A stretch of 64,000 nucleotides of DNA from Bacteroidia bacterium (GTDB lineage Bacteria; Bacteroidota; Bacteroidia; CAILMK01; JACPUW01), in assembly GCA_049115495.1 (NCBI GenBank), contig JAGDZV010000002.1:217458-281457 (forward strand), written 5' to 3'. A model generated the notes under the pieces. The model was not told the origin of the DNA and did no database searches. It saw only the letters and a program-made list of their open reading frames with translations. Each line of letters starts with the position of its first letter. The stretch's first letter is position 1. Below, in pieces: positions 32,446 to 34,906 of this stretch. Position numbers and translations under genes: made by a program.

Positions 32446-32933
32446 TGCTATCGTTTGAAGATAAAACACTCAAAGAGCTAACAAAAAAGTTTGCAAAACC
32501 TGGCAAAGTTGAGTTGATCACCTACCGATCAGAACAATATACTTTGCCAAGCGAAATTGATAACATAATGGCAATTAAAGATCAGGGCCTAGATGGTGAT
32601 CATTATGCCAAAAAAGGAGGTAAACGGCAGGTAACTTTAATTCAAAAGGAACATATTGAAGCCGTTGCCAACATGATGGGCATGGATCAAATTGACCCAA
32701 AGCTGCTGAGAAGAAATATTGTAGTTAGCGGTATAAATCTTTTGGCACTAAAAGGGCATCAATTTAAAATTGGGGATGCGGTATTGGAGTTTGCTGGACC
32801 ATGCGTGCCATGCTCAAGAATGGAAGAAAACTTGGGTAAAGGTGGTTATAATGCCATGCGAGGCCATGGTGGTATTTGCTGTAGGGTTGTTGAGTCAGGT
32901 GATATTAAGGTTGGTGATGGCGTAGCAATTTGA
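32445..32933 (+). CDS. MOSC domain-containing protein
   Basis: ..RQVTLI..RRNIVVSGINL..F.IG..LEFAGPCVPCSRME.. with the conserved MOSC Cys. Confidence 0.78.
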   Translation: MLSFEDKTLKELTKKFAKPGKVELITYRSEQYTLPSEIDNIMAIKDQGLDGDHYAKKGGKRQVTLIQKEHIEAVANMMGMDQIDPKLLRRNIVVSGINLLALKGHQFKIGDAVLEFAGPCVPCSRMEENLGKGGYNAMRGHGGICCRVVESGDIKVGDGVAI

Positions 32934-33288
32934 ACTAAAAAATGATGAATTAATTAGTAAAAGCCATAGTTCCAGTTTAAAATAATGCCTGGTTATTTAC
33001 TCAAATTATGAATGTTAGAATTGTAAATGCAAATGGCTATTTAAAACAAGTAACTTAAGATTTTGACGAATTCTGTTCAAACATTTGAAGAGTTTGGCAT
33101 GATTTACAGTTATGAAGCATATTCCTTTTTAAGCTATTTGAATGTACATTAAACTATGAGTCAAGATGTATTTTGGTTTTTAAAGATTATGGCAAGCCTG
33201 AATACTTAGATGGAGAGATTGGAGAGTTTTACGTAACCTTGAATTTATTGTTAAAAGAGATTAGGAAAAAACGCTAATAGAGCTTATT

Positions 33289-34515
33289 ATGAGGAGTATT
33301 TTACTTGTTTTAGCAATTGCATTTACGCTTAATTTAAAAGCACAAATTCCTGAAATAAAGCCAAGCGCTGTGTATGCACTGAACTTTAGTAAAGAAGGTG
33401 AAGAACAGTTTAATAGAGATAGCGATACTATGAAAGCTATTTTTAAGAAGCTTTCAGAAGGTGCGTCTGAAGATGATCTTACTAAAAGTCAGATTGAAGT
33501 TTGGCAAAACTTTGATGAAACTATGGAAAGTTATTATCAGACCGAAGGAGGTGGCTGTAGTTGGTATTGCGGAGGCGGACCATATGAGGTTACGGGGTCA
33601 AGTTTTCTCAATTCAAGCGGAAGTATAGATTATAAACCTGAAAATGCGCACGATTTTAGTTTTAAATCGGCCTGGGTTGAAGGGGATGAAGGTTATGGTG
33701 TTGGCGAATACTTGCTTTATCATTTCAGTCCAGAATCGCCAAGAATTACAAGTATATCTGTTGCCAATGGATATGTTAAAAGTGAAACTGCATGGAACAG
33801 CAATTCAAGAGTGAAGAAACTGAAAGTATACTTTAATGAATATCCGGTTGCTATTTTGAATTTAGAAGACTCTAGAAGTCAGCAAGTTTTTAGGGTTGAT
33901 ACGCTTGGTCATGGAAATAGAAGGAATATGGATGATTTAAAAGCTTTGGGTGAGTGGAAATTGAAGTTTGAAATCTTGGAAGTTTATAAAGGAGATCTTT
34001 ATAAAGATGTCGTAATTAGCGAAATATCTTTTGATGGGGTAGATGTCCATTGTTTCGCCAAAGGAACTAAAGTGCTTTTAGCAGATTCGTCAGAATTAAT
34101 TATTGAAGACTTGAGATTAGGTGATACCATATTGAGCTATGACTTAAATACAAATAGACTTAAACAATCTATTGTTGAGAAAACAGAAAAAGTAGTTCAC
34201 ACCAATTTGGTAAGGTATGATTTTGAAAGCGGAAACTCAATTATTACAACAAGAGATCATCCATTTTTAGTGAATGTTAAAGGGTGGGCATCTCTTTTGC
34301 CAAAAAAGTCAAGTATTTATGAAGGTTTTGATGGTATTTCTAATGTCGAAGTTGGAGATGTTTTTATTCAGGCAAATTCAACGGATACTTTAGTTGCAAT
34401 TTCGCCAATTAAAAACCCCATGGAGACTTTTACAATATCAAGGCTTTCTCTAGGTAATACATTTATTGCTAATGGATTTATTGTGGGTGTAGAAACTGTT
34501 GCAATTAAACCATAA
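33289..34515 (+). CDS. Secreted two-domain protein: glycan-binding-like (CSWYC motif) N-domain plus a C-terminal Hint (intein/Hedgehog-type) domain
   Basis: Signal peptide MRSILLVLAIAFTLNLKAQ. ..GGGCSWYCGGGP.. jelly-roll-like region. Hint block A HCFAKGTKVLLADSSELIIEDLRLGDTILS (Cys255 = nt 34051-34053). Block B ..TTRDHPFLV... Terminal ..NTFIANGFIVGVETVAIKP* lacks His-Asn. Confidence 0.7.
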   Translation: MRSILLVLAIAFTLNLKAQIPEIKPSAVYALNFSKEGEEQFNRDSDTMKAIFKKLSEGASEDDLTKSQIEVWQNFDETMESYYQTEGGGCSWYCGGGPYEVTGSSFLNSSGSIDYKPENAHDFSFKSAWVEGDEGYGVGEYLLYHFSPESPRITSISVANGYVKSETAWNSNSRVKKLKVYFNEYPVAILNLEDSRSQQVFRVDTLGHGNRRNMDDLKALGEWKLKFEILEVYKGDLYKDVVISEISFDGVDVHCFAKGTKVLLADSSELIIEDLRLGDTILSYDLNTNRLKQSIVEKTEKVVHTNLVRYDFESGNSIITTRDHPFLVNVKGWASLLPKKSSIYEGFDGISNVEVGDVFIQANSTDTLVAISPIKNPMETFTISRLSLGNTFIANGFIVGVETVAIKP

Positions 34516-34906
34516 ACTTCTCCCTTTCTTCAGGTGTTGGCAGCCTACAGGTTTCTTTTTTACCAAACCATTTGTATCGATTTTCTGATACCCAATTGTA
34601 AATACGGTCTCTAAAGCCTTTTGGGAGAATTAAAAACACTTGCATCCATCTGTAATACCAAGGTAAATAGGCGCAAAGCTTTAAAACACCTGTTGATTGG
34701 TAATAGAGCTCGCCATCAATAAAGATTACAACGGTATCTAGCTTTTCAAGAATATTAGAAGGAATAATTTGTTTTGCGGTTTCGCCTTGCAAGGCGGCAA
34801 ATCTCAGTTGATTGTTATTGGCGTCAAGTTTAAAAAGAACATCAATAAACTTATTACAAAGGCCACAAACGCCATCAAAAAATATTATTGGACCTGCTTG
34901 ATTCAT
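34505..34906 (-). CDS. DCC1-like thiol-disulfide oxidoreductase (DUF393)
   Basis: ..IIFFDGVCGLCNKFIDVLFKLD.. is the family's CxxC N-terminus. 133 aa. Confidence 0.8.
   Translation of the reverse strand: MNQAGPIIFFDGVCGLCNKFIDVLFKLDANNNQLRFAALQGETAKQIIPSNILEKLDTVVIFIDGELYYQSTGVLKLCAYLPWYYRWMQVFLILPKGFRDRIYNWVSENRYKWFGKKETCRLPTPEEREKFMV

Follow-up and report, generated by a model that had tools for sequence, protein, structure and literature searches.

A conserved exported Bacteroidota protein joins a lectin-like domain to a terminal Hint domain that probably acts by N-terminal cleavage only

The stretch of DNA analysed here, referred to below as the window, comprises 64,000 nucleotides of contig JAGDZV010000002.1 from a Bacteroidia bacterium (positions 217,458–281,457 of the forward strand), and the gene under study is a complete open reading frame (ORF) of 408 codons within it. 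The encoded protein is composed of a predicted Sec signal peptide, a short helical segment followed by a cysteine-containing loop, a beta-sandwich resembling discoidin domains and carbohydrate-binding modules of family 32 (CBM32), and a C-terminal domain of the Hedgehog/intein (Hint) fold (Table 1). The residues of the Hint domain that carry the N-terminal step of Hint chemistry are conserved throughout the homologues, those that carry the C-terminal step are lost, and the domain closes the protein. We consider it probable that the Hint domain is a single-turnover module restricted to N-terminal cleavage, which would release the lectin-like domain from a Sec-exported precursor.

Table 1. Features of the 408-residue protein gene and its surroundings, in coordinates of the window.
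Feature	Position	Strand	Basis or remark
Complete ORF, 408 aa	33289..34515	+	ATG start, TAA stop; signal peptide, helical/Cys-loop segment, CBM32-like domain, terminal Hint domain
Predicted Sec/signal peptidase I (SPI) signal peptide, residues 1-18, MRSILLVLAIAFTLNLKA	33289..33342	+	Read from sequence; predicted cleavage before Gln19
N-terminal beta-strand and helical hairpin, residues 19-86	33343..33546	+	AlphaFold models; one unit with the beta-sandwich
Gly-rich CxxxC loop GGGCSWYCGGGP, residues 87-98	33547..33582	+	Direct reading of the DNA
NADase-type glycan-binding / CBM32-discoidin-like beta-sandwich, residues 92-249	33562..34035	+	PF25302, NF047619, Foldseek
Predicted scissile junction, His254 then Cys255 (cat tgt)	34048..34053	+	tgt at 34051-34053 is Cys255; conservation
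Hint domain, residues 255-402, 148 aa	34051..34494	+	Foldseek, profile searches, hhalign
Block A	starts at Cys255	+	HCFAKGTKVLLADSSELIIEDLRLGDTILS
His304, hairpin between blocks A and B	34198..34200	+	Family-specific invariant residue
Block B, Thr321-Arg-Asp-His324 (TxxH), then invariant Pro325	34249..34260	+	Aligns with Hh-C T69/H72
Degenerate block G, FIANGFIVG-V-E	34462..34494	+	Gly400-Val401 replace the intein His-Asn; Glu402 at +1
Six-residue tail TVAIKP and stop codon, no C-extein	34495..34515	+	Tail not conserved in the family
355-bp AT-rich intergenic spacer	32934..33288	.	Upstream MOSC-domain ORF ends at 32933
Convergent DCC1-like thiol-disulfide oxidoreductase gene	34505-34906	-	PF04134, E=2e-25

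The full-length AlphaFold model, built with 106 homologues, reached a predicted local distance difference test score (pLDDT) of 84.7 and a predicted template modelling score (pTM) of 0.65. When the model of the C-terminal domain was compared with the PDB by Foldseek, 83 matches were recovered at E<=1e-3, nearly all of which were inteins, bacterial intein-like (BIL) domains or Hedgehog. The top match was BIL2 of Tetrahymena BUBL1 (6y75/6tmm; E=4.5e-12, TM 0.87, root-mean-square deviation 2.4 A). The superposition on a Hint fold that an earlier sequence-only reading of this DNA had proposed as a check was thus obtained with 6y75 and with the C. thermocellum BIL 2lwy (target-normalised TM-score, TMt, of 0.87 for each), followed by 1mi8 (0.82) and the Hedgehog Hh-C domain 1at0 (0.74), with mini-inteins in between. 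That reading had also placed block A at Cys255, a TxxH block B and the C-terminal block NTFIANGFIVG in the gene, and all of these positions were found in the DNA as described.

Profile comparisons placed the domain in the same superfamily. Searched against PDB sequences, the family Hint profile matched BIL2 over the whole domain at 3e-11, 2lwy at 1e-5 and 1at0 at 0.04. Alignment by hhalign to a profile of 77 Hog sequences again covered the whole domain (Prob 97.5%, E=2.6e-11); this match is real, yet weaker than the match to the BILs. On the single sequence, the intein N-terminal model TIGR01445 intein_Nterm (27 bits, cut-off 24.5) and Pfam AXH (PF08517; 36.9 bits, cut-off 33) exceeded their thresholds over the Hint region, so that the profile check suggested earlier returned intein N-terminal and Hint-related models. 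By its fold and its blocks A and B, the C-terminal domain belongs to the Hint superfamily.

AXH is a non-catalytic protein- and RNA-binding module of about 120 amino acids from eukaryotic nuclear proteins. Its match, at 34054-34374 (residues 256-362), extends over the N-terminal two-thirds of the Hint fold. A search in the other direction, with the family Hint profile (A3), matched the AXH structures of ataxin-1 (E=1e-9) and HBP1 (6.5e-7), and a motif downstream of block B, GW(A/S)S..P, is common to AXH, the window Hint domain and Tetrahymena BIL2. These alignments suggest that AXH is a truncated, catalytically dead Hint domain of the BIL/BUBL clade. Our literature search returned no paper linking AXH with the Hint domain.

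The conservation of individual residues was followed in 81 genomic homologues, comprising 80 listed loci and the window itself. Cys255, His304, Thr321, His324, Pro325 and Trp333 are each present in 81/81, whereas His254, Asp323 and N395 are each present in 79/81. Cys255 aligns with Cys1 of both Hedgehog Hh-C and the BILs. The protein ends with NTFIANGFIVG-V-E402 followed by TVAIKP and the stop codon, and it contains neither the His-Asn pair nor a conserved Cys/Ser/Thr at +1. Gly400 is found in 75/81 homologues, position 401 is occupied by V, T or I, and Glu402 is found in 79/80. Beyond the equivalent of Glu402 the tail has a median length of 6 aa and a minimum of 0, some relatives stopping exactly at the Glu. 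The earlier reading had pointed to the missing penultimate His, terminal Asn and +1 nucleophile and had called for a survey of orthologues; in that survey Cys255 and the Thr-x-x-His motif proved invariant and the Asn and +1 nucleophile were absent throughout. Because the ending, which can be written G-x-E, is conserved in 79/80 genomes, we read it from the alignment as a derived functional state and not as decay.

The Hint domain was also searched on its own. A word-indexed search recovered only fragments of its own family, and a profile search run exhaustively against 1.84 billion representatives returned 12,307 proteins at E<=1e-3. When the best 150 of these 12,307 were re-aligned locally with the earlier matches, two classes emerged. 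Class 1 proteins carry a single Hint domain at or near the C-terminus, mostly after an NADase-type domain, with the ending …F-I-A-N-G-x-x-V-[G/K/S/A]-x-E, whereas class 2 proteins string together between two and seven Hint domains head to tail, joined by canonical, intein-like junctions (…L-V-H-N-K-(0-5 aa)-C-F…). In the alignment of the two classes, Gly400-Val401 occupy the positions of the class 2 His-Asn pair and Glu402 occupies the +1 position. Cys255, Thr321, His324 and Pro325 are 100% conserved in 194 class 1 domains that share only ~50% overall identity. His304 can be regarded as a class 1 hallmark, as it is present in 99% of class 1 domains but is replaced in most class 2 (HN-type) domains, which have H in 30% and R in 32%.

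The G-x-E Hint domain is also found with other cargos. In one protein (P0156) it stands behind an unrelated N-domain of 130 aa without a Pfam match, and in Puteibacter caeruleilacunae TKG88871.1 (P0148) only ~28 residues separate the signal peptide from Cys1 and a 140-aa tail follows GVE. In a third protein (P0165), MORN-like repeats precede the NADase-type domain and the G-x-E Hint domain. Based on these arrangements, the G-x-E Hint domain appears to be a portable module that serves whatever lies N-terminal to it.

Complete class 2 Hint domains form head-to-tail arrays of 2-7 copies in P0130, P0131, P0134, P0136, P0140, P0145 and P0167. At the array junctions (...LVHN-(K/R)-(0-5 aa)-CF...), the +1 region of each copy is Cys1 of the next. 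Examples of such arrays are a 1285-aa protein with 7 copies, the protein MBU0757110.1 from a Nanoarchaeota metagenome-assembled genome (MAG) with 4, and the 4119-aa Mucilaginibacter angelicae WP_377022980.1 with 5. The two Hint copies of P0145 lie downstream of an Rhs-core-like motif.

The N-terminal cargo shows clear relationships of its own. Pfam NADase_transloc (PF25302, F5/8-type-C-like) matched residues 92-249 with 171.1 bits against a cut-off of 27 (E=2.2e-50), and NCBIfam NADase_discoid (NF047619) matched residues 104-246 with 127.8 bits against a cut-off of 38 (E=2.7e-37). The NADase translocation domain of S. pyogenes (7ji1) was matched at E=1.9e-4 by the single sequence and at 2.4e-8 by the profile, and was the sole PDB sequence match to the N-domain profile. 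Modelled alone, residues 19-254 reached a pLDDT of 90.7 and a pTM of 0.85, and the best Foldseek matches of this model were CBM32 modules that bind galactose, N-acetylgalactosamine (GalNAc) or N-acetyllactosamine (LacNAc), with a TMt of ~0.7; Factor V/VIII C2 and DOC/APC10 domains also matched structurally. With two profiles above their cut-offs and a discoidin/CBM32-like sandwich, the domain belongs to the NADase-type glycan-binding class, and the glycan-binding-like domain described in the sequence-only reading is borne out. The protein may accordingly bind carbohydrate, as its closest structural matches do. In the open literature, we found no publication that treats the NADase translocation domain as a CBM.

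In the full-length model, a strand (27-30) and two helices (35-56 and 66-74) precede the sandwich, and Pro25 is invariant in the homologue alignments (A1/A2). The CxxxC loop GGGCSWYCGGGP, which had been picked out from the sequence alone and was located at residues 87-98, is nearly invariant across the family: Cys90 and Cys94 are each retained in 77/79 ungapped genomic homologues, and Trp92 and Tyr93 are invariant in alignments A1/A2. Residues 87-90 of this loop form the least confident stretch of the full-length model. The loop may provide a disulfide, a metal site or a ligand contact. At the other end of the domain, the final strand of the sandwich (…VVISEISFDGVDVH) leads straight into Cys255, essentially without a linker.

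A Sec signal peptide had likewise been predicted from the sequence, and the layout of the N-terminus is consistent with it: an MR start and a hydrophobic core are followed by NLKA and then Gln19, an arrangement that resembles substrates of signal peptidase I. In alignments A1/A2, Gln19 reaches a conservation of at least 90%, and 51/71 ungapped genomic homologues have it. In Bacteroidetes, cleavage by signal peptidase I leaves an N-terminal Gln exposed (the Q-rule; PMC5837995), and both the layout and the conservation of Gln19 fit cleavage before this residue. The predicted signal peptide has no lipobox Cys and the protein leaves no room for a C-terminal domain of the type IX secretion system (T9SS), which points to the periplasm as the default location.

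The family is widespread and uncharacterised in Bacteroidota. A search of 5.8 billion proteins returned 1039 matches; the best 120 were examined and nearly all were ~375-445 aa in length (one was 616 aa), 48-57% identical and of common architecture. Named members come from Labilibaculum, Flammeovirga, Marinifilum, Sediminitomix, Mangrovivirga, Porphyromonas, Dysgonamonadaceae, Cyclobacteriaceae and Flavobacteriales, and are labelled in databases as "NADase-type glycan-binding domain-containing protein", "AXH domain-containing protein", "Intein", "hypothetical protein" or "Hint domain-containing homing endonuclease". Cultured hosts with a homologue include Chryseolinea serpens DSM 24574, Flammeovirga aprica, Labilibaculum antarcticum, Aquimarina spp. 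and Porphyromonas canoris. A pattern scan with one genome per species found the gene in at least 414 species, with all major orders of Bacteroidota represented. The 80 listed loci include Bacteroidales, Cytophagales, Flavobacteriales (Aquimarina, Tenacibaculum, Cellulophaga) and Chitinophagales. Four loci from MAGs (L027, L028, L030 and L045) bear the labels Bacillales, Smithella, Lachnospiraceae and Clostridia; their contigs measure 1.2-4.6 kb, and mis-binning of Bacteroidota sequence is a more probable cause than horizontal spread. Our literature search found no publication on this Bacteroidota family.

In the window, the gene lies between fmt/MOSC and the convergent DCC1-like gene. The upstream spacer, which had been described as AT-rich and 355 bp long, has exactly this length and a GC content of 0.28-0.31 compared with 0.33-0.43 in the flanking genes; it presumably contains the promoter. 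Within the spacer, sigma-70-like sites showed no excess over shuffled sequences, the Bacteroidetes -7 motif TAnnTTTG was absent, and a comparison with Rfam gave a single chance-level match (E=0.99) and none near threshold. The last 11 bp of the Hint gene (34505-34515) overlap the 3' end of the DCC1-like gene, and no terminator-like hairpin was found between the two. No second copy or paralogue of the gene is present in the window. The gene had been said to stand alone, and this holds across the family: when the ORFs within 6 kb on either side of the 81 loci were clustered, the DCC1-like neighbour was not conserved and the next commonest family after the Hint family itself occurred in only 8/81 loci. 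An operon partner was rejected on this basis, and with no family recurring in more than 8/81 loci the genomic context gives no clue to function.

In the first step of Hint reactions, Cys1 attacks the preceding carbonyl with the help of the block B Thr and His. The residues for this step are invariant in the family, whereas the His, the Asn, the +1 nucleophile and the C-extein are gone, so only N-terminal chemistry would remain. In the order of events that we propose, signal peptidase I would cut before Gln19, the Hint domain would fold, and Cys255, assisted by Thr321 and His324, would attack the carbonyl of His254 in an N-S acyl shift. Since the resulting thioester at His254 could not be passed on or resolved through splicing, an external nucleophile would have to attack it. 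Water would be the default, activated by Glu402, His304 or both. Glu402 would be well placed to activate water or another nucleophile because it occupies the position from which, in inteins, the thioester is attacked; the conservation of His304 makes it a second candidate and a possible general base. The predicted products are a lectin-like protein of ~26 kDa (Gln19-His254) and a spent Hint fragment of ~17 kDa, both by default in the periplasm. Self-cleavage of this type has a precedent, as B-type BILs lack the intein C-terminal motif and cleave their own N-terminus (review, PMC7765530).

Several points weigh against N-terminal cleavage as the function of this domain. A cleaved product is at present a prediction for every member of the family. 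Pure hydrolysis offers no obvious reason why the module should be conserved across a phylum, and the thiol of Cys1 must be free, yet the periplasm is oxidising. Among the Pfam models, Hom_end_hint, Intein_splicing, PT-HINT, Vint, Hint and Hint_2 all matched the single sequence over the same stretch as AXH and TIGR01445 but fell below their gathering cut-offs, and AXH, a non-catalytic module, was the sole Pfam model above threshold on the C-terminal domain. Finally, the full-length pTM was only 0.65 compared with 0.85 for the N-domain alone, although the uncertain part may be the relative placement of the two domains.

The most serious competitor to simple release, which we regard as possible but considerably less likely, is a transfer of the Hedgehog or BUBL kind, in which a specific acceptor and not water resolves the thioester and is joined by a covalent bond to the C-terminus of the lectin-like domain. 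Hedgehog hands its cargo to cholesterol after the same first step. BIL2 of Tetrahymena, the closest relative of the window domain in both sequence and structure, forms an N-terminal thioester and passes its N-extein to Lys, which yields isopeptide bonds without ATP (PMC8616854). Transfer would also suit other features of the family. The two additional invariant polar residues, His304 and Glu402, would fit a nucleophile-activating site, and the retention of the module on different cargos suggests a benefit to the cargo beyond self-removal. In folds of the discoidin/CBM32 type, the ligand-binding loops and the chain termini are at opposite ends, and a C-terminal tether would for this reason present the binding site outward. 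Tentative candidates for the acceptor are an amine or hydroxyl group on a constituent of the envelope, for instance meso-diaminopimelic acid (mDAP) of peptidoglycan, phosphatidylethanolamine or a sugar of lipopolysaccharide (LPS) or capsule, and a Lys of another protein.

On the other side, the protein has no acceptor-recruiting region after the Hint core (the median tail being 6 aa), unlike Hedgehog with its sterol-recognition region; no gene is conserved nearby that might provide an acceptor or a partner, and no adduct is on record. Sequence alignment with Hedgehog at single positions also speaks rather against transfer. Hedgehog Asp46, which in Hog domains serves as the general base for the attacking hydroxyl, is a well-kept position in the Hog profile, whose column contains D in 74 and H in 3 of the 77 sequences. 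When aligned by hhalign with Hh-C (a query sequence identical to 1AT0) and with the Hog profile, Asp46 falls opposite residue 300, and His304 lies four residues further on in the same hairpin. Residue 300 is not conserved: Glu and Ala each occupy it in 33 of the 81 sequences and Asp in 9. In these alignments Asp46 thus faces a variable position, and His304 may or may not be its equivalent in space.

A reading in which the Hint domain is non-catalytic is unlikely in our view. Here the domain would be a binding or scaffolding module like the AXH domains of ataxin-1 and HBP1, and the protein would remain a full-length two-domain component of the periplasm or cell surface. The AXH score above cut-off and the match of the family profile to ataxin-1 AXH speak for it, and inactive Hint derivatives do exist. 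The residues lost in AXH are nevertheless those that are invariant here: in AXH the block B Thr is replaced by Leu and the His by Tyr, the match begins after the Cys, and only the first two-thirds of the Hint fold are covered. The presence of Cys255, Thr321 and His324 in every homologue, across Bacteroidota orders at ~50% identity, would be hard to explain without catalysis.

The remaining alternative, that the domain is a canonical intein, an A-type BIL or a pre-toxin HINT, acting by splicing or by release of a C-terminal effector, or else a decaying remnant of one, is highly improbable: relatives of the same clade do carry ..LVHN-K-C.. junctions, in some cases downstream of an Rhs-core-like motif, and some databases label members as 'Intein' or 'Hint domain-containing homing endonuclease', but the intein, A-type BIL or pre-toxin identity is contradicted by the sequence, which spans only 148 aa, is not inserted within a host protein, has no Asn, penultimate His, +1 nucleophile, C-extein, toxin domain or endonuclease insert, scores 18.3 bits against a cut-off of 27.7 for PT-HINT, keeps its G-x-E ending across the family, and is followed by a convergent gene that overlaps the stop codon and so leaves no place for a frameshifted C-extein downstream.

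If N-terminal processing is real, the family would represent a phylum-wide bacterial case, present in at least 414 species genomes, of a secreted cargo joined to a terminal Hint domain that performs the first step only. It would then bear on the origin of Hog-type processing and offer a simple bacterial system for its study. A natural Hint domain locked in N-terminal cleavage, with Glu at +1 and no need for a C-extein, could also be of help in making C-terminal thioesters for protein engineering. If the cargo is instead attached, Bacteroidota, those of gut, rumen, oral and marine habitats among them, would possess a new chemistry for anchoring proteins to the envelope. Under this possible but less likely reading, the G-x-E Hint domain might be a self-contained, ATP-independent and sortase-like ligase of the envelope, in which the His304/Glu402 site would move the cargo thioester onto an envelope or extracellular acceptor. 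Such a ligase would parallel, in bacteria, the cholesteroylation of Hedgehog and the formation of BUBL isopeptide bonds, and would add a third route of covalent protein anchoring to sortases and the T9SS PorU system. Apart from function, the family is the clearest sequence bridge in this analysis between catalytic BIL-type Hint domains and the AXH domains of ataxin-1 and HBP1. Although its biology is not new in kind, the family is large, uncharacterised and open to straightforward tests.

Bacterial precedents exist for a C-terminal Hint-like domain on a secreted protein. Dassa and Pietrokovski reportedly noted such proteins, and a different group of them has been known since 2008, when Burglin described proteobacterial and myxobacterial examples (Additional file 16; PMC2362128). 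In members of that group a signal peptide precedes a conserved N-region containing two conserved Cys, and the Hint-like domain is C-terminal, but they come from other phyla (for example Stigmatella, Myxococcus, Photorhabdus and Yersinia) and are divergent from BIL, intein and Hog sequences (PMC2362128); our comparison with them is by description.

The cargo of the window protein corresponds to the domain of the S. pyogenes NAD+ glycohydrolase (7JI1) around which PF25302 and NF047619 are built. In contrast to 7JI1 and CBM32 proteins, it has no NADase or other enzyme domain downstream, and it adds the N-terminal helical hairpin and the CxxxC loop. Compared with AXH, the window domain has the full 148-aa Hint fold, including blocks F/G, together with the catalytic Cys, Thr and His.

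Inteins end in His-Asn and are followed by a Cys/Ser/Thr-initiated C-extein within a spliced host protein, whereas the window domain has Gly400-Val401, the conserved Glu at +1 and a short tail. Bacterial BILs are Hint domains of secreted, non-conserved proteins that autocleave rather than splice, and they typically lie within hypervariable regions of large proteins; the window Hint domain is terminal in a compact and conserved protein. A-type BILs are defined by a C-terminal His-Asn and stand upstream of a variable or toxin region, neither of which is found here. The sub-threshold score of PT-HINT (PF07591), apparently the model for A-type BILs, agrees with this, though the structural similarity to 2LWY is high. 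Membership of the B-type at the sequence level is equally unsupported, as Pfam Hint_2 (PF13403), which we take to be the model for B-type BILs, gave 13.8 bits against a cut-off of 28.4. B-type BILs nevertheless share with the window domain the missing C-terminal motif and the expected N-terminal cleavage (PMC7765530).

The nearest relative, BIL2 from the polyubiquitin-like BUBL1 locus of Tetrahymena thermophila (6Y75/6TMM), has the same Cys1, TxxH motif and insertion after block B (K-x-W-x-S-x-x-P), and the nucleophile that receives its thioester is not a +1 Cys/Ser/Thr (PMC8616854). It differs in that it retains the C-terminal Asn (the crystallised mutant being C1A-N143A) and a C-extein (ubl5), whereas the window protein ends in G-V-E without a C-extein. 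BIL2 is, moreover, eukaryotic and cytosolic with a ubiquitin-like cargo, while the window protein is predicted to be exported with a lectin-like cargo.

Hedgehog and other Hog proteins (1AT0) have the same order of signal peptide, secreted cargo and terminal Hint domain limited to the N-terminal step, and the Cys1, Thr and His of Hh-C (C1/T69/H72) align with those of the window domain. The sterol-recognition or adduct recognition region (ARR) of Hog is absent from the window protein, which ends 6 residues past the Hint core, and the window domain reaches only 15.6 bits against a cut-off of 29.7 for Pfam Hint (PF01079). The window protein is also bacterial, and in sequence it is most closely related to BILs rather than to Hog domains. 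Of the Hedgehog-like character proposed for this gene from its sequence, the architecture and the expected chemistry are retained, and membership of the Hedgehog family is not, given the missing sterol-recognition tail, the sub-threshold Hint score and the nearer kinship to BILs. The protein thus resembles Hedgehog in architecture and the BILs in ancestry. We describe its C-terminal domain as a terminal derivative of the BIL/BUBL Hint clade, probably capable of N-terminal cleavage only, with a G-x-E ending, an invariant His304 and a CBM32-like cargo.

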